From contig PS015088.1 of NCBI GenBank assembly GCA_048213135.1, forward strand, positions 64,180-128,179: DNA of 64,000 nt, in the 5' to 3' direction. Positions within the stretch are counted from its first letter, which is position 1; every line of letters starts with the position of its first letter. Positions 7,740 through 61,356 of this stretch are shown one piece after another. Both the position numbers and the translations under genes were made by a program. The notes below the pieces were generated by a model that saw only the letters and a program-made list of their open reading frames with translations, searched no databases and was not told where the DNA came from. Source of the DNA: Reclinomonas americana ATCC 50394 (lineage: Eukaryota).

Positions 7740-10700
7740 TCGTCTCTCTCTCCTCCTCTCTCTCTCTCTTCCAGTCCTCTATCCCTCTCCCTCTCTCCCC
7801 TTCACCCCCCTGCCTCCCTCTCCCTCTCACTTCCCCTTCCCCCCTTCCTACCCTTGGCCTCGTTCTCCGACTTTTCAACAACAAATGCCGCCTGCAGCTG
7901 ATCAAAGTTGGAGCGAATCGACTCCATTTCTGCGGAAGAGACAGGTCATTGGCGATTGAGACCACATCGAGCTCTACAACTGCATCACCTTGGTTCAGCG
8001 AAGCAATCATCGTATCCTTTTCTGAGCCAGCTGAAGCTGCAGCAGAGATATTTGTTCAGTCTCTAATCCCACCACGATGATATTTCAAACCCGACGGAGG
8101 TGTACCTGTCGCAGCGGTCGACTTGAGTGCCTCCACGCGCTGCTCGACAACTTGCACGCGAGCAGCGAGTGCACTCAATTCGGCAGCGGGTGCCTGCAGC
8201 GGTCCACTGACGCTGCCCTCATCTTCGGCAGAGATCACGACCAGTCGCTTGGCGCACTCGCGCACCGCCTTGCTGATCTGCTCCGTCTGCGCCGCCCACG
8301 CCTGAGCAGCAACATCTGCGGCCAACAGTAATGAGCATTCGTCACTCTCGACCACAGAGAGACACCCGTCACCCAACCTTTCTCGTGTGCAAGCGCCGCC
8401 AACTCAGCGTCCTTGTGATCAATCTCCTCACGCGCTCGCGCCTGCCACGACTTGGTCTTTGCACGCAGTGTCTCCAAGGCCTGTGCGGCATCGGCGGACT
8501 CCTTTTGTGCTGCCTCCAGCTGCTGAGACACCTGAAAATCGCAGGAAAGTCAGGAATGGACACGCTACGCTCATTGCAAAATAAAATGCAGTAAACCGCA
8601 CCTCGCTCACTTGCTGTCTGGCTTCGGTGAGCTCCTGTGAGAAGTAGCGGTGAGAATCAGCCACACAAAAGGGCGGTAAAAAATAAACACACCGCCTCGA
8701 GCACGGCCCTCTCCTCGCTCGACACACGGGCCTGCTCTTCGACTTCTGCAAGTCGCGACTTGGCTGCGGACGCCTCCTCGGTCGCACCTCGGACCTCCTC
8801 CTCCAATTGCGCAAGTCGCGCTGCACTGGCACCGCCAGCTTCAGTTGCCAACCGAGCTTGCTGCTCCATTTCCGCCAGTCGCGCCTTGGCCGCCTGCGCT
8901 TCCTCGGCGGCTGACCGAGCCTGTTCCTCCAACTGCGCCAGCCGTGCCGCACTGGCGCCACCAACCTCACTGGCCAGTCGAGCCTGCTCCTCCACCTCCA
9001 CCAACCGCGCCTTGGCAGCCTGCGTTTCCTCCGCAGACAACCGGGCCTGCTCCTCCATCTCCACCAACCGCGCCTTGGCCGCCTGTGCTTCCTCACTGGC
9101 CAGTCGAGCCTGCTCCTCCAAAGCCGCCAATCGTGCCTCACTGGCCCCACCGGCCTCGGTCGCCAGTCGAGCCTGCTCCTCCATCTCCACCAACCGCGCC
9201 TTGGCCACCTGCGCTTCCTCACTGGCCAGTCGAGCCTGCTCCTCCAAAGCCGCCAATCGTGCCTCACTGGCCCCACCGGCCTCTGTCGCCAGTCGAGCCT
9301 GCTGCTCCACCTCCGCGAGCCGCATCTTTGCAGCGCGTGCCTCCTCGCCTGCGGCGTGCACCTGCGCCTCCGCCTCCGCAAGCCGCGCTTCCACCTCCGC
9401 ACGTGCCTCCACCGCCACACGAGCGTGCTCCGCCACGGCGGCCAATTGCGCCTGCGCCGCCTGCTCCATCTCGGCGAGTCGCTCATGCGCTGCACTGGCA
9501 TTCTCCTCGGCCGCCAGCACCTCCTGCTCCAGCGCCGCCACGCGGGCTTGCGCGGCCGCCGTCTCATCGTGCGCGTGCTTCAAATCGCTGCGCAGCGCGT
9601 CGTGCCGGCCCGACATCTCCGACATTTGCTCATGCAACTTGGCCAGCGGCTCGGCGGCGACAACCTGCGCCGCCGCCTCGGCCAGCTGCTGTTCCACTGA
9701 GGCGGAGAGCGCCTGCGCCTCGGCGAGCTCATTCTCCGCCTGCAGTGCTCGCGCAGTGGCGTCCGCCAGCGCCGCATTCAGCTCGTCGACTTGCACCTCA
9801 GCGGCACTCTTGGCGGCCGTCACCTGCGCAATCAGCGCGGCCTGCTCGTGGAGGCGTGCATCCGCATTCTGTCGTGCCTCGATCAATTTCTGCTCCGTCT
9901 CGCGCGCCGCCTCCAACTCGGCCGTCAGGCGAGCCACCTGTTCGGCAGTATCGTGCGCCTCCTTTGCATGGCTCTCCAGTGTCGCGCGCAGCTCCTTGAC
10001 CTCCTTGTTGGCCGCCTTCAACACCTCCACTGCCGCGACGCGTGCGGCGGCGTGTTCCTCGGCCGACGCCAGTGCCGCATCCCGCTGCTGCACCAGCTCC
10101 TGCAGCTCCTCCTTGGCCTTGGCCACGGTGTTGCTGTGCTTGCTCTGCAGCGCCTCCACCTGCGCCGACAGCTCCACCACCTGCTGCTGTGCCTGTGCCA
10201 ACTGCGCCGCCTGCTCGGCCGAGCGTGCTTCGACCGCGGCTGCGCGCGCTGCCGCCTCCCCAGCCTCCGCCTCCTCCGAGTGCATGCGCGAGGCGTAGGA
10301 ATCGCGCTCCGCCACCACGCCGGCCAGTTGCACGTCGAGATCCTTGGTGCGCGTCGCCAGCGCATCGCGCTCCCCACTCAACGCCACCACCTGTGCATTC
10401 AACTGCGCCACCACCGCACTGAGGCGCTCCTGCTCCGCCGCCATCTCGCCCTTGGCGCTGGCCAGCGCATTCTCCAGCTGCGACACGGCCTGTCCGCCCT
10501 GTCGGAGCGTCGCTTGCAGCTGCTCAATGCGTGCGTCGCGCTCCGCCACGGCGGCGTCGCTGCTGGTGGTCAGCTGCGCAAAGTCGCCGCCCAGCACCTC
10601 CAGTCGCGACTGCAGCATGGTGCGCTCGGCGGCCAGCGTGTCCCGCTCGCGATTCGCCGCTTCCAGTTGCTCGCGCAACTCGCCGTGCGCCCCCAGCAGC

Positions 10701-11860
10701 TGGCGAATCTCCTCCTCGGCCGACGATTTTTCCTGCGCCGTCTGCTCCAGCTCCTCCTGCAGCGCCGCCAACTCAGACTTGTCGCCGGCCTGCTGCTGCT
10801 GCAGCAGACGTTGCAGCTCGGCTTGCAGATCGGCCAGTTGGCGGGCGTGCGCCTCGCGGGCGGCGTTGCCCTCGGCCACCAGGCGCTCCACTTCGGAGTC
10901 GCGGTCGGCGGTGACTTGCACGAGGCGTTCGAGGCGGGAGCGGAGTTTGATGTTGGCTTGGTCGAGTTCTTGGGATTTTTCGGTGGCCTGTGGGAGGGGA
11001 GGGAGGAAGGGGAAGGGTGGGTGGGGGAAGGGGGGAAGGGGGAAGGGGGAAGGGGGTAAGGGGGAAGGGGAAGGAGGAGTGAAGGAGGAAGGGAAATGGA
11101 GATGAAAGGGAAAGGGAGAGAAAGACGAAGGGAAACTACGGATGAGAGAAGCGGATGAAGAGAGGAAAGGCTGATAACAATAAGATCCAGAAGAGTGCGA
11201 AAGCATGCTGCCGAGTAACATGGCAACAATCATTAAACTGAGCAATGAGAGAGAGGAGGGAAGAATAAGAATGACAGCGAAAATATGCGACAGGAAGTGA
11301 GGAGCGTCAAAAGATAGCACGGAGAGATGAAGAGCGAGAAATAAGATTGTGATTGGAGAGGTAACACAACTCAAGTGGTGGCGAGTCAGTGGGGTGCCTG
11401 TGTGAGCAAGCAAGAAGGGAAAGATGAGGTGGAGAAAAGGACTGCATGTTAGTAAGTTTTGCAAGAGGAGTGGGAGAGAAAACAAGTACAGAGGAAGAGC
11501 ATGAGTGAGTAACAGTGTGGGACAGGTGATTACGGGTGAGACAGAGGCGGCAAGAATGAGAGTAAGAAAACAAGAGTGGAGAACAGCAGAGGTGAAAAAA
11601 GAGAGGGTACGGAAATAAGGAGAGGAGAGGGAAACTGACCGGACAGGACAGTGATGCAAGAGGAACACGACAAGGGGTGAGCAAGACAGAAAGACAGACA
11701 GACAGACAGAGAGACAGAGGGAGAGAAAGAGAGAGAGAGCAACAATGAAGAGTGGAAGAAGTCGGCTGGAGGGAAGAATTACCAACACGAGGGAAACCTC
11801 TGTAAATTCCAGAGAGATAGTTAAAATCGCAAGTGAAAGAGAGAGAGAGAGAGTGTGTGT

Positions 11861-11908
<48 letters not shown>

Positions 11909-14900
11909 AAGCGCAGCAGCAGAGGAATGCGGAACCAGATCACAACTCGAGAGTAGTATAATGCGAGTGGTCAGGGAGTGAGAGAAAGTGACGCAGAGTC
12001 GAACCTGTGGATAGCCGAAGCAAGCCCCTTGACCATGAAACAAGACCCTATCTTCCCTCCCTCCCTTCCCCATTTCTACGCACCACCTGCAACTCATCGC
12101 GCAGCGACCTCTCCGTCTGCTCACACAATTTCGACAACTCCTCCTGTGCCAGCGACGCACGTCGCGACGAGGCAGTCACCTCCTGCGCCAGTCGCTCAAC
12201 TTGCGACTGCAGCCGGTCGATACGCTCATGTGCCTCCCTCAACTCGGTCTGCGCCGCGTCACGCTCTGCCAGCGTGCGAGTGTGCTCGCGTTGCATGTCC
12301 TGCAGTGCGGCCTTGGTGCTCTCGTATTGTTGTGTCAGCGCCGCCAGCTCCTCTGCGACACACGTGAGCAATCAAGACAGAAGAGCGATCATTTTCCGCT
12401 CACAAACCGTGGGCGACTTGCACACTGGACGAAGACTTGGCGTTGGACTGCTCGAGCTCCGACAGTGCGCGACGGGATTCTTCGTGCGCCACCTCCAGTC
12501 GTGATTTGATCTCTGCATGACGCAGAGGGTGAGACGAAACACACTCAACCTTGTGAAAAACGCGAGAAGGCTTTCTCGCTAATCGGCTGCGCACTGTTCA
12601 ACTCATGCTCCTCTAACAAGGACACCACAGTCGCCGATGGCGGAGCACTCTCGAGCAGTGCCATGCGCTGATTGGCATCCTCCAGCTCTCTCACGCACGC
12701 CGCGTGGCGTCCTGGGGCGGTGGTAAGTTCGACCACCACGGCCACCAGTAGGGGGGAAGAGAGGGAAGAGAGGGAAGAGAGGGAAGAGAGGGAAGAGAGG
12801 NNNNNNNNNNNNNNNNNNNNNNNNNNNNNNNNNNNNNNNNNNNNNNNNNNNNNNNNNNNNNNNNNNNNNNNNNNNNNNNNNNNNNNNNNNNNNNNNNNNN
12901 NNNNNNNNNNNNNNNNNNNNNNNNNNNNNNNNNNNNNNNNNNNNNNNNNNNNNNNNNNNNNNNNNNNNNNNNNNNNNNNNNNNNNNNNNNNNNNNNNNNN
13001 NNNNNNNNNNNNNNNNNNNNNNNNNNNNNNNNNNNNNNNNNNNNNNNNNNNNNNNNNNNNNNNNNNNNNNNNNNNNNNNNNNNNNNNNNNNNNNNNNNNN
13101 NNNNNNNNNNNNNNNNNNNNNNNNNNNNNNNNNNNNNNNNNNNNNNNNNNNNNNNNNNNNNNNNNNNNNNNNNNNNNNNGAAGAGAGGGAAGAGAGGGAA
13201 GAGAGGGAAGAGAGGGAAGAGAGAGGGAAGAGAGGGAAGAGAGGGAAGAGGGGGAAGAGGGGGAAGAGGGGGAAGAGAAGGGAAGAGAGAGGGAAGAGAG
13301 AAAGAGGGAGTGAATGAGAGAGTGGGAGACAGAGGGAGGAACCAGCCCCTTTCTTGCTCTCTCTCTATCACTCATTCTTGCAAAGTGTATCACTGTGCGT
13401 ACGCGCCGCAAGCCTGCCTTCTTCTGTCACTCGTCGGAAGGAGGAGAGGAGTGTGGAAGTGCTCAGTTTCTCTCCCTTTCTTGATCTCTAATCACGTGGA
13501 TCTGCTGAGCTGCCTTTTCCCCTCTTTGAGAGAGACACACAAACCTCGCAGCTCTTCGAGTTCGGCGACCAGCGCTGTTGGGAGGGGAAGGGAGTCAGCG
13601 AGAGGGAAAGACAAGAAAGAGATCAGCGAGCGCTGCTCACCTTGCTTGGCCTCTGACGACTGCTGAGCATCCAAGCGCGCTCCACTCAATTCGTGTTGGA
13701 GGGTTGCTGTCATGCGCAGTGTCAGTGGTCGTTGACGATACGAGAAACGAGATGAATTGGACGCACCGATTTGCGCGCGCAGAGTGTCCTGCAGCGACGC
13801 GTCGGCCGACGCACCGCCGGCAGATGCAGACTATGGATAGATGTGAGTAACTCACAGTGCATTCGCTCAGGTGGGCAGCTCGCTCACCAATTGCGCCTCG
13901 AGTTCGGCGATGCGCTGACGATCGGCGTCGCTTGTTTGCTGCACGCGCTGTTTCCCTTCCGCGGCTTTGGATTTGAAGGATTCGAATTCGTCGCGGACGT
14001 TGGTGAGCTCTTGGAGTTGGGTGGCGCTGGCGGCCAGGCGCTGATGACATAGGGAAGGGGGTGAGAAGTAGGAAGAAAAGGGAGAGAAAGGGGAAGCGAA
14101 GGGGGGAAGCGAAGGGGGGAAGCGAAGGGGGGAAGCGATGGGGGGAAGCGATGGGGGGAAGCGAAGGGGGGGAAGCGATGGGGGGGAAGCGAAGGGGGAA
14201 GCGAAGGGGGNNNNNNNNNNNNNNNNNNNNNNNNNNNNNNNNNNNNNNNNNNNNNNNNNNNNNNNNNNNNNNNNNNNNNNNNNNNNNNNNNNNNNNNNNN
14301 NNNNNNNNNNNNNNNNNNNNNNNNNNNNNNNNNNNNNNNNNNNNNNNNNNNNNNNNNNNNNNNNNNNNNNNNNNNNNNNNNNNNNNNNNNNNNNNNNNNN
14401 NNNNGAAGCGAAGGGGGAAGCGAAGGGGGAAGCGAAGGAGGGAAGCGAAGGAGGGAAGCAAAGGGGGGAAGCGAAGGGGGAAGCGAAGGGGGAGGAGAAG
14501 GGGGAAGCGAAGGGGAAGCGAAGGGGGAAGCACGAGGGGAAAGCGAAGGGGGTGAGAAGTAGGAAGAAAAGGGAGAGAACGGGGAAGCGAAGGGGGAAGA
14601 CGAAGGGAAGACGGAAGGGGGAGACGAAGGGGGAGGAGAAGGGGGGAAGAGATGGGTGAAGCGAAGAAGGGGGAAGGAGAAGAAGGGGAAGGAGAAGGGG
14701 AAGAGAAGGGGAAGAGCAGGGGGTAGAGAAGGGGGAAGCAAAGTGAAGAGAAGGAACAGTAATTCTGGGAATGGAACGGCAAAGCGAGAAAGGAACTGGT
14801 TGGTCAAGCCAAACGGGCAGCACATCACCAGCAAATGCAAGAAGAGAGAGGACAAATAGACACGTGAAAGCACTGGCAAGAAAGTTGAACGAATTTGAGG

Positions 14901-17689: not shown

Positions 17690-20600
17690 TCACTCCACCA
17701 GATACACCTCATAGTCCGCCACCATAAAGTACGGCGCACCCATCAACGTCTTGCTATTGCACGCCCCACCATCCGTGCTCTGGTACGACTCGGGTGCACT
17801 GCTGCTCTGCCCGTTACTGTTGCACGCGTCCGCCACGGACAGGCACCCAGAGCCCGAGATCAGACTGGAGACGGATCCACCGCCGCCAAAGATCGGCCCG
17901 TGTCTGCCGAGATGAAACACGGCATGCTGTTTGCGCTCCTCTTTCAGCGCGAATCGTCGCGCACCTCCATCGCTCCACGATGCCGAGAAGAGGAAGCTGG
18001 AACAGGATGGGTCGCCGGCACGATCGCCCGACGACTGCCACGGGACAGGCGTGTATCCGCCACACACGCGCCCCTTGGATGACTTGATCACAACCAGTGT
18101 TGCTCTGTACGCCGGAAGTCAATCATCTCCTTCTTTCTCTCTCACTCCCTCCCATTCTCACTCTCTTTCTCTCTTCTTTCTTTCTTTCTCTCTTTCTTTC
18201 TCTCTCCCTCCCTCTCTTTCTCTCTCTCTCTTTCTTTCTTATCCCCTCTCTTTCTCTCTCTTTTTCTCTCTCACTCTCTATTTCTTTCTTTCTTCTTTCA
18301 TTTTGTTTCTTTCTTTTCTTTCTTGCTCTCTTTCTTTCATTCTTTCTTCTTTCTTTCTCTCATTTTCTCTCTCTCTCTGTTTTTCTTTCTTCTTTCTGCT
18401 GTCTTTCTTTCTCTCTGTCTGTCTGTCTACCTGTCCTTCTCTCTTTTCTGTTTCTCTCTTTTTCTGTCTCTCTTTTTCTCTCATTTTTCTTTCTCTCCTC
18501 TCACTCGCTGTCATTCTTTCTTTCTTTCTCTTCCTCTCCACTCTCCACAGCACTTCCTCTTGCCTCTCTAAACCTCATTTCCTTCTTTGTTTCCCTCAAT
18601 CTGACATTCTCATCTCTCTCTTTCTCCCTCTCTTGCCCTCTCTTTCTTTCTTTCTTAGTTTTTTCTTTTTCTTTCCTTCAATCTGTCTTTCTTCTCTCCC
18701 TCTGTCTGTCTGTCTGCCTGTCCTTCTCTCTTTCCTTCTTACTTCTTCTACTTTCTGCTTTATTTCTCTCTTTCTCTCTCTCTTCCTCTCCTTCTCCTTC
18801 TCCCTTTCCTTCCCTCCCCCTCCCCCTCTCCCTCACCCTCCCCCTCCCCCTCCCCCTCCCCCTCCCCCTCTCCACACTCACCCACGATCGTCGCACCGCT
18901 GATGGAATGCGTGCGCCGAATAGCCATCCCGACTGGCCTTGAACAGCAACGTCAACCGCAGTGCATTCTTGCCGCCACGCGCCTGCTGCACCCACTGCAT
19001 CACCACTCGCGCATCGGCCGCACTCAGCAGGCCGTCGGCAGAACTCAGCAGCTCGAAGCTGCGCTCGTGCTCCTCCCGTGCTCTGATCTGCCGCTCTCGC
19101 TCCTCTCGCTCTCTGGCCTGCCGCTCGCGTTCCGCAGCTTCGCGTTCTTGCAGTGCGCGTTCGCGCATCTCCAGGGGCTCGAGACGGGCGAGCAGCTGCG
19201 TAAAGGGAAGGAGGATAAGGGGAGGAGTACAAGAATAAGTTGAGGACGCTAAATGCAGAACAAACCTCGGCAACACCTCTCTCGAGAGTTTCGCGCATGC
19301 GACGCTCTGCAGCAAGTTGCTCCCTGCTTTCCACAAGCTGCCGGGAGAGTTCGTGCACTCGGCCATGCAGCTGTGCATGTAAAATGTGAGGCACAACGTG
19401 TGCATCAGTGCCAGAACCCAATCACGCATACCTCACGCAGTGGTCGTTCCACTCGCAACACATCGCACACTCGCTCATGCTCCTCCCGCTCACCAACGAC
19501 GCCATGCCATTCGCATCCCAGTTCGTTGCCACGGCACGCTGTCTGCAGGAGGCGGCACTCCGTTTCTGCAACACAGGATAAATTAGTGTCACACGACGCA
19601 CTCCGTTACAAAGCACACTCACCAAGATGTCGTTGCATCTCAGCCAATGAACATTGCTGTTGACATCCACGCGGACACGCTCGCATGCACCCGGTTCTGC
19701 TGTGCTCCACCATCTCGTTCAATGCCAGTTGCATTCCGCATCCGAGAGGGCACTCGCGCAAGCATCCGCTCCACGCATGTTCCGCCGTGCGGTCCAGAGT
19801 CATCTGCTGTCCACATCTGTCGCACGTGTGCAAACACTGCGAGGGGCCATGCGTGCGGTAATAATCGCCCACCGTCTGTTTTCATCCACAGTGATCAGGA
19901 GAAGAGAAAGATTGAGTGGAAGGAAGTTGGGGACAGCAAACCGTCGGTACATGGCATCGTGGGCATGTTACCTGTGGCCTCCATCATGTCAGCATTTTTG
20001 GCGATGCACAGCGAGGACAGTCAGACGAAACGTTCATGTTGCTGTACATGAGCTGCAGTCGTCGTGGTGCCTCCTTCAATGTGGCCAAAGATGTGGCTCC
20101 GTCGCCACAAAGATCAGAGCCAGCCGCTGTCACGTGTTCACTGTGAAGCACGAGTCAGTAAAAGGGAAAGGAAGTGCTGGAGAAAGAGAGAAACAGAGAG
20201 GGGAGGTAGAAGAGACGGATTTGGGATGCTCAGTGCAGTGAGAGGTAGAGAGAGACACACACAAATGCACAAAGAGAGAGAGATACACAAAGAGAGGGCG
20301 AAGATGAGAGAGGTACGTGTTAGAGGAGACTCTAAGACTGCAAGATGAAGAGTGACGAAAAGGCGGAGAGTGTGCAAGAGAAAGAACAGACTTGGGATGC
20401 AACTGAAGACAGAACGCCAGAGACCAAGTGAGAAAGACAGTGTAGAAAGAGTGTGAGGGAGACGAAGGAGACGAGGGAGAGGCGAGAGAAGTCGGAGTCG
20501 AGAGAGGAGAGCATACAACGAGACGCTGAAAGTCGTGTGAAGTAATAAACCATGCAGAGAATGATGAAGAGTAAAAGAGAGACAACGGAGGAGGCCGAGG

Positions 20601-21605
20601 GAAGAGAGACAGACTTGAGATGCAACTGAAGACAGAACGCCAGAGACCAAGTGAGAAAGACAGTGTAGAAAGAGTGTGAGGGAGACGAAGGAGACGAGGG
20701 AGAGGCGAGAGAAGTCGGAGTCGAGAGAGAAGAGCATACAACGAGACGCTGAAGGTCGTGTGAAGAAACAAATCATGCAGAGAAAGATGAAGAGTAAAAG
20801 AGAGACAACGGAGGAGGCCGAGGGAAAAGACAGACTTGGGATGCAACTGAACACAGACAGGATTCAGTGGAAGAAACGGAGAGACATTGAACGAGAAATG
20901 AAACCGAGACAGACGGGAAGTGAGATAAGATGCAACTGAGTGGAGATCCACAGAGACCAAGTGAGGAAGACAGTGGCGAGGATGGCAGATCGTGAGACAG
21001 AGGGAAGAGACAGAGTTGCGACGGAACTGGACAACACCAGAGACCGAGCGACAAAAACGAATGCACAAGAATTGAGAGACATATGCAAACAGGCACTACG
21101 CTGCCTCGTTCCACTCACCGACACAAGTGATGCAGCTCGCTGGCACACAGAACAAAGTCTGGAGTGCACAAATCCTGGTCCAGAAAATGAAGTCATTCAA
21201 TGCGAACACACACACGCACAGAGAGAGAGAGAGAGAGCATGAGTGTGTGCGACAGAGAGAGCATGAGTGTGTCTGTGTGTATGAGAGAAAGAAGAGCGAG
21301 TGGACACTAACCATGCACACTGGACACTTGTATTCTTCCGCCAATGCCCGCGACTCTTGCACGACTTGTTCCATCCACAATCGTGGTGGATGCACATCCT
21401 CACCTGCTGCCTCTGATGGCTGGCGACGATTCACAGCGCGCACCACGCGGAACTCATACTGTTCCTCAGAGTCAGCAAGTCGCAAGATGTGTTGCTCGAG
21501 AACGATCTCGCTGGCACAGTCGGTGATAGGGGGAGCGGGTGGAAGAGGATGAGGAGCGGAGGCTGATCCACTGCCTTTGCCGCTGTTTGCGTCCTCGAAA
21601 CCCAT
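17690..21605 (-). CDS. Variant RING + TRAF-type zinc fingers + coiled coil + TLDc protein, paralogue A
   Basis: ATG 21605 (MGFEDA). Spliced RING-like CPVCM|DLCTPDFVLCASELHHLC|REHVTAAGSDLCGDG. Zinc fingers CDRCGQQMTLDRTAEHAWSGC, CPLGCGMQLALNEMVEHSRTGC, CPRGC...QRHL and CRGNELGCEWHGVVGEREEHERVC. E/R-rich coil. TLDc LTLLFKASRDGYSAHAFHQRCDDR|...IKSSKGRVCGGYTPVPW...DPSCSSFLFS...GPIFGGG...DYEVYLVE, stop 17690. Confidence 0.85.
20387..20960. repeat. Intronic tandem repeat, ~222-bp period, about 2.5 copies
   Basis: cagacttg(g/a)gatgcaactgaa starts at 20387, 20610 and 20831; the first two copies are near-identical over their length. Confidence 0.85.
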
Positions 21606-21712
21606 TCGCGGCCAGGTGTACGACGGAACAGAGTTTTGCGTCCTTCGCCTAAGCGGCGACGTTGACGACGAGTGGCGAGAAGACAAAAGCAGGCTGTAAC
21701 TTCATTATTCAT

Positions 21713-23342
21713 TTACTCCACGAGAAACACTTCGTAGTCTGCTACTTTGAAAAGCTTCGACCCGACGAACGTCGTGTCATCGCACGCTCCACCGTCGGCG
21801 CTCTGGTACGAATACGGGTTGCCGCCGTCACTGTTGCTGTTGCTGTTGCAGTTGTCGGTCAAGAAAAGAGCGCCTGAGGATCCTCCGAATGTCGGTCCAT
21901 TGGCAGAGTTGTGCTGAACGGCAGACTGTTTCTGATCGGCCTTTAGCGCGAAGCGTCGCGCACTTGCACCACTCCACGATGCGGAGAACAGGAAGGTGGT
22001 GCCTGACGGATCGGCGACATAAACTCCTCCCAACGTGCCAGCCTGCCACGAGATACGTGTGTACCCGCCGCACACTCGTCCTGTCGACGACTTGACCACC
22101 GTCAGAGTCGCTCTGCGCGCCACCACTCGTTAACAAGTCACCGAGAAGTCTCCCCCTCTTCACTCACTCACCCTCGATTGTCACATCGCTTATGGAACGT
22201 GGCTGCTGAAAACCCATCTCGACTGCCCTTGAACAACAGCGTCAACTTGGGCACACTTCCACCACCACCTCGCGCTTGCTGCACCCACTGCAGCACCACC
22301 CGTCCATCCGCCGCACTCAGCAGATCGCTGTCAATCTTCCTCTCCGCTCGCTCGCGCTCCTCTCGTTCCCTGGCCTCGCGCTCTCGTTCCTCCCGCTCTC
22401 TGGCCTGCCGCTCTCTCTCCTCCTGCTCCCTGGCCAGCCTTTCTCGTTTAGCCGCCTCCCGTTCCTGGATCGCTCGTTCACGCATCTCCAGTGGCTCGAG
22501 ACGAGCGAGCAGCTGCAGTACAAGAGTCGGAATGAAGGGAGAAGAACAAGTAACCGGCATTCTCATCACAGACCTCAGTAAAGCCTCTCTCGAGAGCTTC
22601 TCGCATGCGACGCTCGGATCCAAGTTGCTCAGTGCATAAAGCAAGTCGGTCATCAGTGCCTTGCCTTGCTCGTTGCTCAGCGATCAATCGCTCCTCCACA
22701 GCTTGCCTCGCCTCTCTCTCTCGAGCAAGCTGCTCCCTGCTCTCAGCCACCAACTGTGAAAGTTCACGCACTTGCATGTGAAGCTGTGGAAGCTCTCGCA
22801 CTCGATCATGCAGCTGCACGCACAATTAAGTCAGTGCAGAAACAAGAGTTTCACTTCTCATCATCCCAAAACTCACCTCACGCAGCGGTCGCTCCACTCG
22901 CAGCACATCGCACACTCGCTCATGCTCCTCCCTCTGCCCAAGGACACCCCGCCACTCACACCCCAGTTCACCACCGCGACACGCAGTGTATTGCAGTCGG
23001 CACTCCGTTTCTGTCACGAGGACACCATATCAGTGTCATGACACATGCACTCTCCTTCCAAGCACACTTACCAAGATGCCGCTGCATCTCCGCCAGTGGA
23101 CAAAGCTGCTGACATCCACGTGGACATGCTCGCATGCACCCACTCCAGCTGTGCTCCACCATCTCACTCAGTGCCATCCTCGCTCCACACCCCAGTGGAC
23201 ACTCCCGCAAGCACCCACTCCACTTATGCTCCGCAGTGCGATCGAGTGTCATCTGCTGTCCACACCTCTCGCAGGTATACGAACACTGCGATGGGCCATG
23301 TGTGCGGTAATAGTCGCCGACCGTCTGTTCAACAACAGTGAG

Positions 23343-23382
<40 letters not shown>

Positions 23383-24789
23383 CTGAGAAGGAAGACTAGA
23401 GACTGAGAATGAGAGAGAGCGAAGAGAACGAGAGAAGACACCAAGACTGAGAGGCGCAAGTGTGGTAGAGGGAGATATAAAGAGAGGATGATAGGGAGCG
23501 AAGAGAACGAGAGAAGACACCAAGAATGAGAGGACATGGGGAGAGACAGAGATGGCATGTTTGTGTGTGTGTGAGAGAGAGAGAGAACACAACACACGAC
23601 ACAAACCATGGGCGCGTGACACAATGGACATTCAATCTACTTTCATCATCTCGGCATGAGTACTCCAAAAAGAACACACACACGTGAAAGAGAAAGCAGC
23701 AACCTTCAAGTTCTCATACGTCAAGCGCAGTCGGCGCTGCACCTCATGCGCCGTGGCACGAGTCGTGACTCCATCGCCGCACAGATCCACTTCCGCGTCG
23801 GTAATATGCTCACTGGCGACGCATGCTGCTCGTCAGCGTGAACGCACGCCACAGACACGGACAGCTACCAACTCACCGACACAAGTGATGCAACTCGCTG
23901 GCGCACAACATGAATTCCGGAGCGCACAGATCCTACGTAGTTCAAGGAAACGTGAGGAAGAGAGAAGAGGGACAGAGAGGAAAGCGGGAAAAGGAGAAAC
24001 AAGAAAGCAAGATGAGGAAGAGTGTGTGAGAGAGAGGGAGGAAGAGAGACGGAAGGGAGGAGCGAGAGGAGAGAGCAAGAGTGAGAAGGAGAAGGAACAG
24101 GAAGCAGACGACAAGGATGATATGTGCGTGATACGACAGAGACGGAGAGTGTGACAGAGTGAGAGAGTGCTGTGACAGAGTGAGAGAGTGCTGCGATTGA
24201 GTGGGAGAGATAGAGAAAAGAGTGCAGTGAGAGGAGGAGAGGAGGAAGAAGAATAAGAGGCGAAACAAGGAGAGGAGGATGTGGAATACGACAGGGAAAG
24301 TGGGTGACTGAGGCAGAGAGGATGAGAGAAGCGAGAGTGTGCTGAGGTATCAGGAGAACACAAGAGTCAAGAAATGCCCTCGACGTCTCTCTTTGTCTCA
24401 AACATACTCACACCGCGCGCAAACAAGGAGAGTAACTGTCCATGCATCGGAGAAACTTTCCTGCGATGTGTGTGTGTCTCGCTCACTCACTCTCCCTCTC
24501 TCTCTCCTTCACACACACACACACACACAAGCACAAACGCGTAATGAAGAAAGCTGCACTGTTGTGACATCCAGAGAAACACAAGAGTCATGACACTCCA
24601 TTTCTCTCTTTCTTCTTCTCTCACTCTCTCTCTCACACACACACACATACACATACACACATACAAACATACACACACACACGCGCGCGCATACACACAC
24701 ACACACGAACGCACAAACGCGCAAAGAGGGAGAGCAGCAAAGTTCTGACATCAGGGGAAACACAAGAGTCATGGCGAAAACTTCATCTC

Positions 24790-24821
<32 letters not shown>

Positions 24822-25279
24822 ACACACACACACAAATGCGCAATTATATGCTGCACTGTTGTGACATCCGGAGAAACACAAGAGTCATGCACATATGACT
24901 CAATAATGTTTCCTCTCTCTCTCTCCTCTCCTCCCCCTTCCCCCTCCCCCTCCCCCTCTCCCTCCCCCTTCTACCTCCCCCTCACCATGCACACTGAACA
25001 CAAATACTCTCCCGCCATCGCCCTCGACTCCTCCGCGACATGCTCCATCCACGGACGCGGCGGCTGCACATCCAACAACGGTCGACGATGCACAGCGCGC
25101 ACCACACAAAACTCAAACTGTTCCTCCTCTCGCTCGCCACTCGCACACAGTCGCATCACTTGCTGCTCGAGAACAACCTCGCCGTGATCATCATCTGCAG
25201 CGGGAGGTGGTGGAGGAGGAGGAGGAGCAGCTGCGCCTGAGCCGCTGCCTCCGCCACCTTCAGCGCCCTCGAAACCCAT
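21713..25279 (-). CDS. Variant RING + TRAF-type zinc fingers + coiled coil + TLDc protein, paralogue B
   Basis: ATG 25279 (MGFEGA). CSVCM|DLCAPEFMLCASELHHLC|REHITDAEVDLCGDG...ENLK|IECPLCHAPM|TVGDYYRTHGPSQC..., with the same intron positions as paralogue A. TLDc LTLLFKGSRDGFSAATFHKRCDNR|...VKSSTGRVCGGYTRISW...GPTFGG...DYEVFLVE, stop 21713. Confidence 0.85.
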
Positions 25280-25370
25280 GTCTCCGTTAGGGAAAACGTG
25301 AGGAGTGATGGTTTCTGACAGGACGGTAAATAGCGACGTTGGTGGGGACCCCGTTGGTGAGTGTGTTGGT

Positions 25371-25860
25371 GAGAACAGGTGGTGCAAGTGCCAGGACTGC
25401 CAGACAAGACTCGCCGTGGTGACAAGAGAGTGTCATAATCATCTTCATGGCGGATGTCGACGTCGACATCGACAGCCTGCAACAACAACATGAATAATCC
25501 AACCAGCAACACAGATGCATGGAGACTGCCATGTTGAGTGGAAGATGAGATGTCAAAGGTGAGAAACAATCGATGGATAACGCCAGCGTTTCGAATTTCG
25601 AATTTTGATTCAAGGCTAAAATGCAAGCGTGGATTGAGCTCGAGTCACAAATCGTGGGGTGGTGGCGAGAACAGGTGGTGCAAGTGCCATGACTGCCAGA
25701 CAAGACTCGCCGTGATGACAAGAGAGTGTCATGATCATCTTCATGGAAGATTATGACGTCGCGGACAGCTTTCATCAACAACAACTCCACGAAGCCAACG
25801 AGCAACACTGCTGCATGAAGATCGCCATGTTGATGGTGACAAGAGAGTGTCATGATCATG
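25371..25860. repeat. Local direct repeats upstream of TLDc paralogue B
   Basis: gagaacaggtggtgcaagtgcca(g/t)gactgccagacaagactcgccgtg(g/a)tgacaagagagtgtcat occurs at 25371 and 25668, with a partial third copy near 25835. Confidence 0.8.
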
Positions 25861-46584: not shown

Positions 46585-49500
46585 TCAAGTCGAAAACGCC
46601 TTGTTCAACTGCTTCTCCAACGTCTTGCGCATACCCGCATTGAAGACACTGCTGGGGAAGTTGTCCTCGTTCGTCGAATCCTCACGCCACGCCTCGCACA
46701 AACTCTGCATCCGCACGACGGATTCAGGCAAGCTCTCAATTGCAACACCTCCCTCATTTCCACGCTGCCCTCACCTCCGCATCATAGATTCCCTTGCTGC
46801 GCAGATGCTGAGCCACTTGCGCGCACGTCTCCGGCTCCCACAAGTGCTGCAGGTACTGGCGAAGGAAATCTGCAAGCACACGAAAGGTCAGTACTGTTAC
46901 TTCCTCTTCTTCTCTTCCGCGTCCATCTTTTCTTCTCCTCTGTCTCCTTCATCTTCTCCTTGTTCCTTTTCTTCTCTTCCACGTCCGCCTTTTCTTCTCC
47001 TCTGTCTCCTTCATCTTCTCCTTGTTCCTTTTCTTCTTTTCCTTCTGCTTCATCTCCTTCTTCCTCTTCTTCTTCTACTTCTCCTTCTCCTTCTCCTCCT
47101 TCTCCTCCTCCCTTTTTCTGTTCTTTATTTTCTTCTTCTTCTTCTCCTTCTCCTCCTTCTCCACCTCCTCCTCCTCCTCCTCCTCTTTTTCTTCTTCTCC
47201 TCCTTCCCCTCTTTCCCCTCCTTCCCCTCCTCCCCCTCCGGATCCCCTTCTCCTCTTCCGCCTTCTCCTCTTCCCCCCTCCTCCTTCTCCTCGCCACTCA
47301 CCCGCCACCGGCACATCACCCGGCCCATTGGGATTCACCCACGCACTGACTGGCTGCGGCACCGGCACCGCAGATCCACTCCCAGAGGCCACAGACTGCG
47401 GAGAGATCACAGCGCTGGTGCTGTGGGCGCTCGAGCTGAGCGGCGAGTGTCCACTGTCATGCTCGACTTCCGAGCCGGCGGCGTAGGCTTGCTCCAGAGT
47501 CGGGAAGCGACCACTGGAGCCGAGAGCGGCGGGATTCTCTTCCATCTGCTCGGCCAGCGTCTCGAGGTTGTTGAGTGCGAGGAGGTAGGCTTCGTGAATG
47601 GCACGCAGCACCGACACCTCCACGTCGAGGTCTTGGAGTCGCTCGTCGCGGTACGTGCGGATGAAACGCACGCGCTGCACACCGTAGCCACCGTCACCCG
47701 ATGCGCACATGCGGTCGCGCATGGCAATGGTGTCGGCGTGCGCCTCGGCCAGCAACGCATTGCCGGTAAACTCGCCGCCCAGCAGGTCGACCTTGGAGAC
47801 GAGAATCATCGTTGGGATGCCATCTACAAGAAAGTGAGTGGTGAGACGATGCGCTGAACAGAACACTTCGCAGTCGACGAACCAGGTGGCAGAGCATCGC
47901 GGGCACGCGAGATAAAGGTCAGCATCTTCTCGCGGGTGGCACCGTTGCCGACATTGTCGGCCGGGATGATGAGCAGCAGGCAGTGCACCTGCATTGACAC
48001 AATGTAAGTCAACCCCAAACCTGAATGAACAGTCGGCAGAAGAGTGACATAGGGAAAGAGAACAAGAGGGTGGCTGCTGAACGCTGTGAATTCGCCTGTC
48101 GCACAAGTCTCACCTCGTCACAAACAGTTGGGTTGGGATTGAAGCACGTCGGGTCTTCGCGGCCCATGCGGCGGAAGTCCCAACCGGCTTTGGCCTTGCC
48201 TTGCACAATGTACGCAAGCTCGTCTGCACAGCACTCTGTCAACATCACAAATTGCTTCCACTTCGAGAACACAGATGGGTCTCACCGCGCTCATACAGTC
48301 CCTTTTGCCAGCCCATCATGTCCAAGAACGCCAAGTGCTGGAACCGAGGGTCGCGCAGCGCCTTGTGCACCATCAGTCGCTGCGTCAGGCTCGTGGAGGA
48401 GTCACCGGAGCAAGCCACACGTTCGCCCTGTGATGTTGTAGACCGCGAGATGAGAACGAGCTCTTACGATGCCTCTCGGGCACCAATCTCACCGGCGAGT
48501 TCAGCCCAATGCTCTTCAGGGTGTTCAGCAGCGACGTTTTGCCGGCCTTGACCTCGCCGGCCACCAAGAAATTGATGCGCAGCTTGGGGCCAAACACCTG
48601 GCGCAGATACTCCAGGCGCGTGGTGTTGGCCAGCTTTTGCAGCAGTTGCTCACGTCTGCCACGATAGGGAAGTCAGCAGACAATGAAACACAACTCACGG
48701 GTGACATACTCAACTCGTCCACTAGTCCTCCACCGGGCGCCTCGTGCTGCGCCTGTAGCAGAATGCGAGCTGCAACCTCCTTGTGGCGGCGCTGCAGCTC
48801 CTCAGCTACAGCATCGGCAATGGGCTGTTGGATGGCATCCGGGAGAGTGTCGTCCAGAGCGGCGGACAGTGCGGCAGGCAGGTCTCGCTGCACGGCCTGC
48901 GGCAATGCGCGTGCAAGGCCGTCGGCAAGTTGTCGCTGCATCGCCGGCGGCAGCTTCTGGTCTACGAGGCCATTGATCGTGTTGGGCAGCAGCTCGTTCA
49001 GCACCGGCGGCAGTGCCGCGGGCAGCGCTGCGGGGAGCACAGATTTGATGGCCTCCGGCAGGATGGTGCGCAGGGCGTCGGGGAGAACGCGATGCACAAT
49101 CTCATCCACCCGCTCGCCGAGTCGCTCCTCCAAGAAGCGCTCGAACGCACCAATGTCGACCGTGGTGTCTGCAGACGCGGAAACGGATCAGTGTTTTGAC
49201 ACGAGAAGCTGCATACGAAGAGATTTACCGATGATCTCGTGCACCTCCAGTTCCGTCCAGGCCATGTTTGCGTTGCCGCCCAGCATCCAGTACTCATTCA
49301 AACCCTGTGGGCTGTATGTTCCGCCAACATTGCTGCACGAGGGGAGTAGAGACACGTTAACAAGGATGGACAGCATGGTCCAAGTAAGTGAGACACTCAC
49401 ACGTAGACGTTGTTGTTGCTGTTGAAGTACAAATCCTACAAACATGCGACAGCATGCGCAAGGTGAGAATTTCTCCTGCTGACTGCAAACGCACGAGCTG

Positions 49501-50160
49501 GCAACTGTAGCGCAACGTGGTTGCTCCCCCAGGCACCGTAGTAGCTGTTTTGATGGTATACTGCACTCTCCTTGCTCTGGTACTGGTCAAAACGACGCTC
49601 ATCGCGCTTGCCTTGCACAATCAACTGTGCATTCAAGAAGACAGATGAGAACGAGCAACACCAATCAACGACTGCACCGAGACAGCAACTCACGGAGAAG
49701 ATGAACGCCTCCGAGTCGTAGTGGTACTGCCCGTTAGTGCCCCACTAATGGAACACACAAAATCAGATCAAATTACATTTGTACATGACGGATGGATTGA
49801 CGCAACGTGTGTGGTCTTGAAGCCACCAAGCAGGAACTGCGACCCACCACTGCCACCTCCGGCAATGGTGATGGTGTTGCGCAGGCCAGAGGCATCCGTC
49901 TTTTGATGGAATGTCGAATACGATGAACCATCTCGTGTGTACCGGTACACCAGACGCAGACGACTGATGCACACATGCACACGCAGCGAGAGGTTAGAAG
50001 AGGTAAGAAAAAAAGAAGAAGAGAGTGTGTGTTGCGAGACATGAGCGCACCACGACGAGTATCCGAGAAAGTTCTGAATGGCCGTCACATCGGCCTCAGT
50101 CAACAGAGCGCTCTCCACCACAGGCAGAATCTGGCGACGAGGACGAGATCCGCTTGCCAT
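46585..50160 (-). CDS. IFI44/IFI44L-like protein: TLDc + helical LP-repeat linker + P-loop GTPase-like domain + SAM-like tail
   Basis: ATG 50160. TLDc: RLVYRYTRDGSSYSTFHQKTD, LLGGFKTT, YDSEAFIFS, GAWGSNH|DLYF, TELEVHEI. GTPase part: REQLLQKL, INFLVAGEVKAGKTSLLNTLKSI (G1 at 48535-48558), SGDSSTSLTQR, FLDMMGW (G3), CADELAYIVQG, NPNPTVCDE|VHCLLLII, GIPTMILVSKVD (G4), TYRDE...EVSVLRAI. Tail VA|DFLRQYL...HLRSKGIYDAE|SLCE...AGMRKTLEKQL, stop 46585. GT-AG junctions that keep the frame were found throughout. Confidence 0.8.
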
Positions 50161-50396
50161 GGCTCTCACACACAAATGAGAAAATTGTGATTCCGTTTGC
50201 ATGCGACAGGACATGCATTCCCGTCTTGGTGGATATTGACAGGACTGTTTCGAAACGCGACAGAATTGCAGTGCGTCTCGTTGCCGCTGGTGGTGTGTGT
50301 TGTAGTCTGAGAGACTGTGAGTGAGAGTGCGTCTTTGAGAAGCGCGCCAACTGCCCAGCTGCAGCAGACAGGACGCAATATCCCGTTTCCTATCCA

Positions 50397-52546
50397 ATGC
50401 TCTCTGACGAGCAACAGTTGCAGCTGCTGTGCTGGATTGGCCGCGATGGGTACGCATGCACACACATGCCACTCTTCTGCACCACTGCATGCTCACTTGT
50501 GTTCCCAGGCAACGACTTCGTCTTCACGAGTTGCATTCGTCGCGGAGTGGTCGCTCGGGGTTCTCCACTGCTGAGGTGGCCAATGTGGCCGAGCGATACG
50601 CTTCCTCGTCGTTGTTTGTGGTGTTGTGGACGGCCAATCAGTCGATTGTGGGCGCATACACAACGCGTTCGTGGAAAGCCGCGCGATGTGACCCGCATGC
50701 GTTCTTGTTTGCAGTTGCGCACTCGTGTGAAAGCAGAAGCTTTTGTGAGTCTCTGACGTGGGGACTCCAGCTGGCAGTGGGCGGTCAACCAGTGGCGTGT
50801 GTGCTGGAGAATGCAGGTGTCGCGAGGCATCAAGATTATGTGTGCGGATTGGTTCGGAAGCATCCACAGGTGGACTCGAGAGTGATCAGCTTTGGCGCTG
50901 GTCCGGTGAGTGTCTACTATATGCACTGTCATGGCCGTCTCTTCCTCGCGCGTGCTGAGTGCAGTGGTGCAGGATCTCGCGTTGCAGCACGGTGTGTTGC
51001 TTGTTCCATCGCGTAGTATGTTTTCCAGTGCTGCGACGTATCAAGCACAAGACACACTGCGAGTGGTGTGGTGAGCATGCTGTGCTGTGCATCCACCACG
51101 ACTCGGCACTCAATGACACTGTTTGCGTGCCACAGCAACCCTGGCCACTCATTCGAACCCTTTGACGATCACACTAGGCGACTCGATCCCGAGCTCTTCA
51201 GCAGCACCGGCTCGCAAGTGGTGCAACTCGCAGTGTATGCCGTGGTCGCAGGTTCGTTGCACTCTCTCTTTTGTCTGCGTCGTGCTTCTAATTCTGTGCC
51301 ACAGGGGGCGAGCCACTTCGAAAACCTGCTGCGCACTCCACTGCAGCCGCACCTCCACCGTCACTGCCTGCACACCGCCTGTCTGAACTGCAGGCGTTGA
51401 GCGGGCAGAGCGACCAGTGTGTCAGTGCACTGCGGCAGCTGCCGAATGTGGATGACCTGTTGGCAAAGCTGCACACCGTGCTATGTTACCAGCAGGATTC
51501 CATCCAGAGCCTGTGCGCTGAGAACTCCGCCTTTCGCCAGCTGCATGCCGTGCCATCGCTGCTGGTGCGTCTGTCCACCTGCACTCTTGCATTGATGCCT
51601 TCTCTTGTTTTCACCACGCCAATCTCCAGCAGGTTACAGTTGGAGGCACTGGCGCAGCACCGAGCGCGACCGGAAGACCATTACCACCGCCAGCACGTCA
51701 GCCTGTTGTACAACCACCACCACCACCACCGCCTCCTCCACCTCCACCCTCGCCACCTCTCCCACCACTTCCGCCACCTGCTGAATCTGTGGACCACGTG
51801 AATCGCACTCGAGCACCCGACATGGAGTTTGCACTCGACGACGACGACAGGCATGCCGAGCGTGCCATAATGTCGCCAGTGCCGCGGATGATGTACGTTC
51901 CGCGGATTGTTGTGGTGTGCTCACAAATTGCAGAGCGTGACTTTACGTCGGCCTACTGCCTGCCCGAGGTGTGCCGAGCGTTGCAAGTTGCAGGTACGTC
52001 AGGAGACAACACAGAGAGGATTGGAGGTGGTGTGAGTGTGCTCAACACGAAGAATCGTCTCAGGTGCCTTCCGAGTGGTCTCCCTGGCCGATCGTCCTCG
52101 CCACATCGACGGTGTTTTGGTTGCTCTGCGCGTGTCGGGACGGATAGAGACTGACGAGATTCGCACCTTCTTTCGTCGGGTGCTCGGCAGTGGTGGTGGT
52201 GCGTTGCAGTCATACCGATAAGTGGCTTCTCCTTTGCAACTCATGATCGCTGTGTGGTGCAGCAGGCTCTTCGTCGTCATCATCATCATCATCGAGAGAA
52301 CCCGTGCGACAGGTGCTGTTGTCGTTCATGAATGAGCCGAGCAAGCCGTGTGACTCGGATGACGAGCTGAAGACCGGTATCCCGGCCTCGGAGCTGGCAC
52401 GCAGCGGGATTGCATGCATCGACATGCGCTTCGTGGAAAAGTTCCCCAGTCCGTCGCGCTTTGTCACAGACCGCGGATTCAACCGCCAGCAGCTGGCGAG
52501 ATTGGACGAGGCGCTGGGTGGCACGGGTGACGAGTGGAGCGAGTGA
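50397..52546 (+). CDS. Divergent TLDc protein with coiled coil, poly-Pro linker and an unassigned C-terminal alpha/beta domain
   Basis: MLSDEQQLQLLCWIG, LFVVLWTANQSIVGAYTTRSW, DPHAFLFAV, ISFGAG and QLAVYAV follow the TLDc motif order. A helical exon, a PPPPPPPP linker and RIVVVCSQ...IDGVLVALRVSGRIETDE...VLLSF...IDMRFVE follow, stop 52546. The start and some junctions are tentative. Confidence 0.62.
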
Positions 52547-59500: not shown

Positions 59501-61356
59501 TCATCGCCTGTTGATCCTCTTTGTCATCCCAACACGCGATGCTTTCCTCGCATCTCCTTTCTCGTTACCCTTCTCGCTCCTTTCCAACTGTTGCTTTTCT
59601 TGATCCTCTCTGTCATCCCAACACGCGATGCATTCCCCGCATCCCCTTCCCGTTACCCTTCTCACCCCTCTCCAACTCTTGCTATCCTTTTGCCGTCCCA
59701 ACACGCGATCCTTTCCTCACATCTCCTCTCTCGTTACCCTTCTCGCTCCTTTCCAACTGTTGCTTTTCTTGATCCTCTCTGTCGTCCGACTCTTTCCTCC
59801 CATCTCCTTCCCGTTACCCTTCTCGCTCTTCCCCAGCTCTTGCCTTTCTTGATCCTTTTTGTCGTCCCAACACGCAGTTCATTCGTCGCATCTCTTTCCC
59901 TTGTTGCTTTCTTGATCCTCTCCGTCGTCCCAACACACGATCCTTCCACATCCCCTTTGCCCTTCTCACTCTTCCCCAGCTCTTCCCTTTCTTGATCCTT
60001 TTTGTCGTCCCAACACACGATCGTTTCCTCGCATCTCTTTCCCTTGTTGCTTTCTTGATCCTATCTGTCGCCCCAACACGCGATCCTTTCCTCACATCCC
60101 TTTCCCTTTACCCTTCTCGCTCCTCTTCGGCTGTTGCTTCTCGTGATCCTTTCCTCGCGTCTCTTTCCCTTCACCCTTCTCACCCCCTCCGCTCCTCTTG
60201 CAGTTCTTTGAGCAACTGTGCACCAAGTCGAACGCATTCGTGCGGGAGGACGAGCACGACGCGCAGTACTACCACGTGGCGCCGCTGCACGTCATGTCGC
60301 GCGAACACCGAGAGCAAGCGGAGCTGACGTTGCTGGCGTTTGGTCGCGCCCTGGCCAAGTGTCTGTCGGAGGCGCACGCGGCGCTGCCGGCTCCCCTGTA
60401 CTCGGACGTGATCCTGGAGCTGCTCGGCTCGACTCCACGCGCGCGCATGTTTTGCGATCCAAATGATGTGACGGCCGACGCTGCCGAGGCGCTGCTGCGC
60501 GCACTCGAAGTGATTGTGCCGTCGGTGGCCAGGAGCTTGCGCTTCACCCTGGTGCAGTTCGAGGCCTCCATGTTGTTCTTTGACGATGTTGTACCCGAGT
60601 TTTTGCCAAGCACTGTCAGTTGCGTGCGGATAGGGAGAATGGGATTGGCATGGCGAGTGGCTCACGAGATTGCTTTGCAACACAGATGCACGTGATGGCG
60701 TCACGGAGGAGAATCGCTTGTCGTACGTTTGTGCCCGCGCTCGCACGGTGTTGCTGGGTCAGGGCCGGTTGGACGCCATCTCAATAATTAAGCGCGGAGT
60801 CCGGGATTGTCTGGCACCCGCGTTGGGCGATCAGGTGTGTGTGCGCGCGCGTCATGGAATCGTTAGTCGTGGCACTCATTTCTTCTCGAATATGCTGCAG
60901 CTGCTCAACTCCATGGGTGCCTTTGAATGGCTGCGCGCACTGCCGGCAACGCAGGAGTCTGTCGGTGCGTCCTTCTCCTTCATCGTCTCCCCTGTCCCTC
61001 TCACCACCGCATCGCTCACCGCTCGCACAGATGCCGAGGCCCTCATCGACCTGCTGCGCTTTGAGCACTTCCCTGACGCAAGCGAGGCACCCCATGTGCT
61101 GGCCCAGGCGCTGCGCGAATTCACACAAGATGAGTTGCGCCAGTTCCTCAAGTTTGTCACCAATCTGCCGGGGCTGCCGTTCGGACATCCGCGACCGGTG
61201 TTGGTGGTGGCCTCGGCGGCTGGTGTCGAAGAGCTCCCGACGGCGCACACCTGTGTGCCGCAGTTGGATCTCAGCTGGCATCACTCGTCGGCCGAGGTGC
61301 TCGGTCGTGTGCTGCGGACGGCGATTGCGCAGTGTGTTGGCTTTGGATTCGCGTAG
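53509..61356 (+). CDS. Ankyrin repeats + coiled coil + protein kinase (non-RD, DYD) + HECT E3 ubiquitin ligase fusion
   Basis: ANK: GTTPLHLAAQLDETDMI|RWLV, ERTPADVA. Coiled coil ~54964-55310. Kinase 57977-59140: WILKRY, FLREVSILRQ|VQHPNVVRL, VVHCDLNFENV, IVDYDIA, GFLAPE, DLFALGVML, DPKKRISALDALAHPFF. HECT 59329-61356: LRVSFLGEEGVDAGGLTAEFF, VTEENRLSYV, RQFLKFVT, LPTAHTC (Cys codon 61252), GFGFA stop. The true start is not resolved, and the ANK-to-kinase link crosses N gaps. Confidence 0.8.
59510..60175. repeat. Intronic degenerate minisatellite in the HECT region
   Basis: ttcttgatcct...tgtc(a/g)tcccaacacgcgat and cgttacccttctcgctc each recur several times. Confidence 0.8.

Follow-up and report, generated by a model that had tools for sequence, protein, structure and literature searches.

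Two intact 8-exon paralogues lie head to tail on the minus strand of positions 17690-25279 in a 64,000-nt stretch of Reclinomonas americana ATCC 50394 (contig PS015088.1, positions 64,180 to 128,179 of the forward strand; hereafter the window). Gene 1 (g1) encodes 559 amino acids (aa) and gene 2 (g2) encodes 608, and each protein comprises, in order, an N-terminal region, a Cys/His cluster, four CCHC zinc fingers, a predicted coiled coil, a Glu/Arg-rich helix and a TLDc domain. The best explanation, to which a probability of about 0.6 can be assigned, is that these are functional paralogues for proteins of TRAF architecture in which TLDc replaces the MATH/TRAF-C domain. Such proteins would assemble into an oligomeric scaffold, with multimerised TLDc domains to bind the target and the zinc head to signal.

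The C-terminal domain was assigned from Pfam searches, which were run on the translations of single exons (curated cut-off for TLD, PF07534: 24.5 bits). Exon 8 of g1 scored 55.5 bits over positions 54-169 of the 170-position TLD profile, and exon 8 of g2 scored 41.6 bits over positions 53-169. The end of exon 7 supplied the preceding piece of the profile (positions 7-51/52 at 14.8-15.8 bits in g1; positions 26-52 at 16.8 bits in g2). Together, the exon 7 and exon 8 pieces cover positions 7-169, and the splice therefore restores one complete TLDc domain. As judged by these profile matches, the C-terminus of both proteins is shown to be a complete TLDc domain, and by domain g1 and g2 are members of the TLDc family. 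In a language-model Atlas, all 30 matches of g2 exon 8 were TLD clusters (score 0.96, with a low recognition value). No match to MATH was obtained in any exon translation at E<=0.1 or E<=0.05, in keeping with the proposal of an initial annotation of this DNA that TLDc stands in the place of MATH. A possible third, unrelated TLDc gene is located on the minus strand at positions 49436-50523. Its open reading frame (ORF) at 49768-50523 matched profile positions 24-60 of Pfam TLD at 18.1 bits, below the cut-off, and in tblastn it was weakly similar (E 0.002-0.005) to the part of g1 and g2 in which TLDc begins; Pfam matched nothing in the ORF that follows downstream (49436-49744).

The four CCHC fingers of each protein follow the pattern C-x2-6-C-x11-H-x3-4-C (aa 171-191, 195-216, 220-241 and 248-271). 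When overlapping matches are counted, this pattern occurs five times per protein, compared with means of 0.09 (g1) and 0.05 (g2) in 2000 shuffles of each sequence. Single exons were below the detection level of Pfam zf-TRAF, and sub-threshold matches to zf_UBZ and Sina_ZnF alone appeared. A phmmer search of exon 4 against 1.84 billion representative proteins returned 11 matches at E<=1e-3 (best E 9e-12; 37-38% identity), and multiple Pfam zf-TRAF units are present in 10 of these 11 nearest proteins. Apart from zf-TRAF and further families of zinc finger, Pfam reports in them just ankyrin repeats or unrelated domains, with ankyrin repeats and zf-TRAF combined in four of them (P0001, P0004, P0005 and P0007); TLD was found in 0/11. 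An alignment with nine of the relatives (P0003 and P0010 were left out) shows little or no variation in the Cys/His columns of exon 4. Local phmmer alignments between the spliced proteins and the relatives cross the join of exons 4 and 5 (e.g., aa 168-272) and span approximately aa 139-309, apart from four marginal stretches outside this range (domain E 3-11). Ahead of the array, the alignment with the relatives places His162 and Cys167 opposite the His...Cys half of a finger, and no Cys pair is found upstream of them at finger spacing. The eleventh relative, P0003 (2127 aa, E 1.9e-6), is a bacterial-type SpvB/FG-GAP protein. It contains nine evenly spaced stretches that align locally to aa ~145-209, just before and in the first finger, and these may be a Cys/His repeat of their own kind.

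Structure comparison pointed in the same direction as the sequence relatives. The AlphaFold2 model of exon 4, for which the alignment of relatives served as input, had a pLDDT of 84.4. Its first Foldseek match was the N-terminal domain of TRAF6 (3hcs_A; E 1.3e-3, probability 1.00, TM 0.40), followed by another TRAF6 entry, the fingers of Cep104, TRAF4 and TRAF5/6. In VIA, a fold search that is independent of Foldseek and covers 48,161 chains, the first two matches were TRAF4 fingers (Z 3.9, rmsd 5.5 A, 62 aligned residues; Z 3.6, rmsd 3.6 A, 59 aligned residues). FLN29 and Cep104 were also among the fold matches of the finger model. Sequence searches of the PDB with exons 4, 5 and 8 and with two-row profiles yielded no TRAF or TLDc entry, and chance matches only (E>=0.079). 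On the combined evidence the fingers are TRAF-type by homology, the structural support being weak when taken alone. The initial annotation had proposed TRAF-type zinc fingers, and the zf-TRAF content of the relatives, together with TRAF6 and TRAF4 as the best fold matches, bears this out. A metagenome scan with the exon 4 alignment gave two candidates (L001 and L002), each with 39% identity over 41 residues. The former, a 116-aa ORF beside bacterial-looking genes, was rejected as a chance pattern match, and the latter, with the same identity and matched range, is presumed to be another. Word-index protein searches for exon 4, exon 8 and the TLDc start of exon 7 in longer proteins found nothing, which is weak evidence.

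The gene models were built by reading the minus strand and joining open pieces at GT...AG sites. The interval delimited in the initial annotation begins exactly at the g1 stop codon (17690-17692) and ends exactly at the g2 ATG (25277-25279). All 14 introns are of the GT-AG type, with CAG at 13 acceptors and TAG at one, and 9/14 are 57-70 nt long. The earlier description of tandem paralogues with the same intron positions holds, since positions and phases are common to g1 and g2 in 7/7 introns; exons 1-5 are also equal in length (294, 56, 109, 253 and 134 nt). The long introns of g1 are accounted for by repeats. Its intron 2 carries a 223-bp unit in 2.1 copies with 94% matches (20381-20857), and its intron 7 carries a TC-rich microsatellite of ~400 nt (18132-18531), the corresponding introns of g2 being 64 and 59 nt long, respectively. 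Two other splicing solutions were rejected. The other frame of exon 2 likewise encodes a Cys-rich peptide, but it has no in-frame join to exons 1 and 3 and is less conserved between the paralogues. Extension of g1 exon 3 to a downstream C-x2-C meets a stop codon, disrupts the reading frame of exon 4 and lacks conservation in g2.

When the g1 and g2 regions were compared by blastn, exons alone aligned, in six collinear matches of 67-84% identity, and introns did not; one further, trivial 20-nt match arose where the query slices overlapped. The proteins are identical at 385 of 543 aligned positions (71%), and exons 4 and 5 are each 86% identical. The synonymous divergence (dS) is ~1.05, so the duplication is old and the two copies are neither alleles nor an assembly duplicate. 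The ratio of nonsynonymous to synonymous divergence (dN/dS) is 0.20 overall, with values of 0.076 in the fingers, 0.23 in the Cys/His cluster (aa 93-153), 0.23 in TLDc and 0.35 in the N-terminal 92 residues. Both g1 and g2 are intact, identically spliced genes under purifying selection. No further copy of the fingers was found within the window by tblastn with the spliced proteins.

The joins also bear on whether the arrangement could be a gene-model artefact, with fingers and TLDc on separate transcripts, or a pair of decaying duplicates of which one is a pseudogene. The distance of 107 nt from the g2 stop codon to the g1 start codon is unusually tight and would fit such an explanation, but a single open frame runs through the same seven joins in both copies despite a dS of ~1. 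Moreover, the helix and the start of TLDc both lie on exon 7, and the Pfam TLD and finger alignments run straight over the joins, making an artefact or decay highly improbable. For separate eukaryotic genes so small a spacer is striking, and the pair may be co-transcribed or a promoter may lie within g2. In blastn, no alignment of the copies extends upstream of the ATGs. A direct repeat begins ~85 nt ahead of the g2 ATG and extends over 25363-25846, with two copies at a spacing of 296 bp (a 103-nt block with 90% identity and a 71-nt block with 75% identity).

The fingers are followed by a helical region of 90 aa in g1 (22 Glu and 20 Arg) and 143 aa in g2 (34 Glu and 33 Arg), exon 6 of g2 being longer than that of g1 by 45 residues. 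Hydrophobic residues of heptad type characterise its first part. Its second part is up to 86% charged per 28-aa window, with 21 (g1) and 36 (g2) opposite-charge i/i+4 pairs, and could be a single alpha-helix spacer. Complex prediction with three copies of g2 exon 6 gave an ipSAE of 0.82 in three runs, compared with 0.01 for the best of three controls; the mark set by calibration was met by 21/30 solved homomers and 0/23 single chains. The runs agreed in at least 98% of contacts, and the partner pLDDT was at least 88. The contacts of least error were same-residue pairs (such as 43-43, 57-57 and 46-46), and the modelled arrangement is therefore parallel and in-register. This model supports self-association rather than a trimer as such, and both a dimer and a trimer would fit. 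The coiled coil of the initial annotation thus stands as a modelled parallel assembly. In the proposed mechanism, the helix after the fingers would self-associate into an oligomer through the modelled coiled coil, and the stiff Glu/Arg-rich helix would hold out clustered TLDc domains, so that the target would be recognised with avidity.

At the other end of the proteins, a conserved N-terminal region precedes the Cys/His cluster. Both proteins begin with the same four residues, including Gly2 (21594-21605 and 25268-25279, minus strand). The Phe that occupies residue 3 in both is disfavoured in the usual N-myristoylation pattern. The TLDc proteins Rtc5 and mEAK7 depend on N-myristoylation at Gly2 for reaching the vacuole (PMC11066047). 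Nine Cys/His residues of the cluster (aa 94-128) are kept in both paralogues, in the pattern C-x2-C-x10-C-x4-H-x2-C-x2-H-x8-C-x-D, with one extra Cys and one extra His. None of the local phmmer alignments with the 11 relatives covers aa 94-130. By residue pattern, the cluster is RING-like in its place and general order, with a spacing that is not canonical. The RING consensus has 1-3 residues before the His, a Cys at ligand 6 and a final C-x2-C, and TRAF RINGs end in C-x2-D.

Several results weigh against the TRAF-architecture interpretation. The cluster departs from the RING consensus at three points, namely a four-residue loop before the His, a His at ligand 6 and the C-x-D end, and no RING family was found by Pfam in any exon translation, a weak test for a cluster split over three exons. 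The exon 4 search of the 1.84 billion representative proteins retrieved no close relative or orthologue. The exon 4 model had no Foldseek match at E<=0.001, and none of the 48,161 chains in VIA matched at Z 5. In the case of the coiled coil, g2 exon 6 was folded with three copies and without an alignment, the calibration having been made with two copies, and amphipathic helices may score high through their likeness to solved coiled coils. TLDc had no sequence match to any solved TLDc structure, either by phmmer or with a two-row profile against the PDB, and the AlphaFold2 model of exon 8 alone, which holds two-thirds of TLDc and had two alignment rows, was unusable (pLDDT 30).

If the TRAF-architecture reading is correct, a zinc head with a RING-derived or RING-like cluster would provide a ubiquitin-linked output, whether by E3 activity of its own or in the role of a ligase-like scaffold. 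An active E3 head is possible, with the odds against it. Somewhat unlikely is the rival explanation that the proteins are non-catalytic oligomeric adaptors or regulators, in which the cluster would serve as a zinc module, structural or ubiquitin-binding, as in TRAFD1/XAF1-type proteins, which have TRAF fingers and no RING, and the proteins would act stoichiometrically, like Oxr1 and Rtc5, or as a scaffold. The departure of the cluster from RING spacing is consistent with this, as is the result that a RING family occurs in 0/11 of the nearest finger relatives (E<=0.01). Atlas matches of exon 4 include TRAFD1/XAF1-type and ubiquitin-binding zinc-finger clusters, but their recognition values are low (1831), making them weak leads; zf_UBZ on exon 4 reached 19.3 and 20.1 bits relative to a cut-off of 25.6. 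Set against an adaptor role, the cluster lies exactly at the place of the TRAF RING and has been kept between old paralogues, with 9/9 Cys/His residues conserved at the dN/dS given above.

To our knowledge, V-ATPase is the only established ligand of TLDc. In a reading that follows the initial annotation, g1 and g2 would encode active RING E3s of the TRAF kind, with an Asp-terminated RING; the TLDc domains of the oligomer would dock on V1 of the assembled V-ATPase at acidic organelles, and V-ATPase or its neighbours would be ubiquitinated. Their architecture is that of TRAF-type E3s except for the C-terminal domain, and the nine conserved Cys/His residues are where TRAFs have the RING, but the RING pattern is non-canonical. 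As regards the target, one study reports that all five mouse TLDc proteins co-precipitate with V-ATPase and that conserved Gly residues of the Ncoa7 TLDc are required (PMC8608904); yeast Oxr1 and Rtc5 promote V-ATPase disassembly (PMC11066047). Motifs of the residues critical in Ncoa7 (the D-G-x-S loop, G-G after the first strand and F-G-G) seem, by eye, to be present in g1 and g2. However, their TLDc is too distant from the V-ATPase-binding class to match solved TLDc structures by sequence, and the isolated TLDc of Tbc1d24 and Tldc1 failed to pull down V-ATPase in the same study (PMC8608904), so binding is not automatic. Nor does the window contain a V-ATPase gene or anything else linking g1 and g2 to V-ATPase. 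Targeting to V-ATPase or the phagolysosome would follow by analogy with the OXR1, NCOA7, mEAK7 and Rtc5 class only; V-ATPase is an unlikely target, and active E3s at V-ATPase are more doubtful still. A more specific scheme, in which trimeric TRAF-style ligases that evolved independently of animal TRAFs would use three TLDc domains to read the three-fold V1 head of assembled V-ATPase and couple acidification to ubiquitin signalling on phago-lysosomal membranes, is speculative and very unlikely.

Coordinates of g1, g2 and their predicted domains in the window
Feature	Position	Strand	Remarks
g1 (gene 1)	17690..21605	-	8 exons, 559 aa, stop 17692-17690; frame open over all joins; GT-AG in 7/7 introns
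g1 exons	21605-21312, 21174-21119, 20140-20032, 19875-19623, 19565-19432, 19370-19266, 19195-18882, 18104-17690	-	
g1 Cys/His cluster, aa 94-130	20101..21326	-	Split over exons 1, 2 and 3
g1 TRAF-type finger array (by homology), four CCHC	19465..19836	-	Exons 4 and 5; pattern against shuffles, zf-TRAF relatives, fold matches
g1 helical region, aa 283-372	19031..19370	-	Exon 6 and first part of exon 7; heptad-type stretch, then predicted Glu/Arg-rich helix
g1 TLDc (by profile)	17693..19030	-	Split by intron 7; N-terminal part at end of exon 7, remainder in exon 8
Spacer, g2 stop codon to g1 start codon	21606..21712	-	107 nt
g2 (gene 2)	21713..25279	-	8 exons, 608 aa, stop 21715-21713; frame open over all joins; GT-AG in 7/7 introns, phases as in g1
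g2 exons	25279-24986, 23932-23877, 23812-23704, 23324-23072, 23010-22877, 22813-22574, 22512-22172, 22112-21713	-	
g2 TRAF-type finger array (by homology), four CCHC	22910..23285	-	Residue numbers as in g1
g2 helical region, aa 283-425	22324..22813	-	Exon 6 (22813-22574, 80 aa) modelled as coiled coil, then predicted Glu/Arg-rich helix
g2 TLDc (by profile)	21716..22323	-	Split by 59-nt intron 7

The surrounding DNA is eukaryotic in character, with spliceosomal introns, assembly gaps (runs of N) and microsatellite-rich non-coding DNA. The neighbours of g1 and g2 are ordinary housekeeping genes, which comprise a BtpA-family gene, a GRIP-domain ORF, an ABCG-type transporter, coatomer epsilon, a HECT ligase and a double AAA ATPase. 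The HECT ubiquitin ligase is represented by its C-terminal part (60634-61353, plus strand; 68.8 bits) at the right end of the window. At the same end, the minus strand of 61708-63998 encodes two AAA ATPase domains (132 bits each), which suggests a Cdc48/NSF-type protein. An open frame of 1172 aa at 8657-12175 (minus strand), within a GC-rich stretch (59-65% GC), matched no Pfam family at E<=0.001. No Rfam family reached its gathering score in a search of the whole window.

TLDc is an old eukaryotic domain with large expansions in protists and invertebrates, and its occurrence on a TRAF-style chassis would show that evolution uses it as a module for target binding, open to multimerisation and to coupling with ubiquitin-type signalling. 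Should an active E3 head be combined with a V-ATPase-binding TLDc, the proteins would open direct access to how ubiquitin controls organelle acidification, and trimeric ligases on V1 would represent a TLDc output unlike that of the known stoichiometric disassembly factors. Even if they are neither E3s nor V-ATPase binders, they would still widen the range of TRAF-like scaffolds outside animals. No description of TLDc joined with TRAF-type fingers or a RING architecture was found in the literature searched, consistent with the statement in the initial annotation that the combination is not a described family. This statement needs softening, as TLDc is hugely expanded in some protists, PF07534 being listed for 210 genes of Entamoeba invadens in PMC4053983.

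Among known systems, g1 and g2 resemble TRAFs such as TRAF6 and TRAF4 in having an N-terminal Cys/His module, several CCHC fingers, a coiled coil modelled as parallel and a C-terminal recognition domain. They are not TRAFs, because they lack a MATH domain. TLDc is found instead of MATH/TRAF-C, and further differences are the non-canonical RING spacing, a Glu/Arg-rich helix that separates the coil from the C-terminal domain, and the lack of any detectable sequence match to TRAFs in the PDB. With the V-ATPase-binding TLDc proteins (OXR1, NCOA7, TLDC2, mEAK7/TLDC1, TBC1D24 and yeast Oxr1/Rtc5) they share the C-terminal TLDc (PF07534), and the Gly2 of N-myristoylated Rtc5 and mEAK7 (PMC11066047) is also found in g1 and g2. 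In contrast, the N-terminal partners of TLDc in that class are LysM/GRAM, TBC, EF-hand-like or none, with no zinc-finger and coiled-coil head, and the TLDc of g1 and g2 is distant from theirs.

RING-less TRAF-finger arrays (TRAFD1/FLN29, XAF1, the Cep104 fingers, and ankyrin repeats with zf-TRAF) include the nearest sequence relatives of the fingers, as well as the Cep104 and FLN29 fold matches, but TLDc accompanies the fingers in none of the 11 nearest proteins. TRIM proteins have the same general layout, with a RING-type head and a coiled coil ahead of a C-terminal recognition domain that varies; their coil is an antiparallel dimer. Unlike in TRIMs, the fingers of g1 and g2 are TRAF-type, the coil is modelled as parallel and no B-box was matched by Pfam in any exon translation; for want of a B-box the proteins are not TRIMs. 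Pfam likewise found no BTB or pentapeptide match in any exon translation. By their predicted domains, g1 and g2 would be best described as modular scaffolds of TRAF/TRIM-like type that carry a new recognition module, a rare domain combination that appears lineage-restricted as far as the searches reach.

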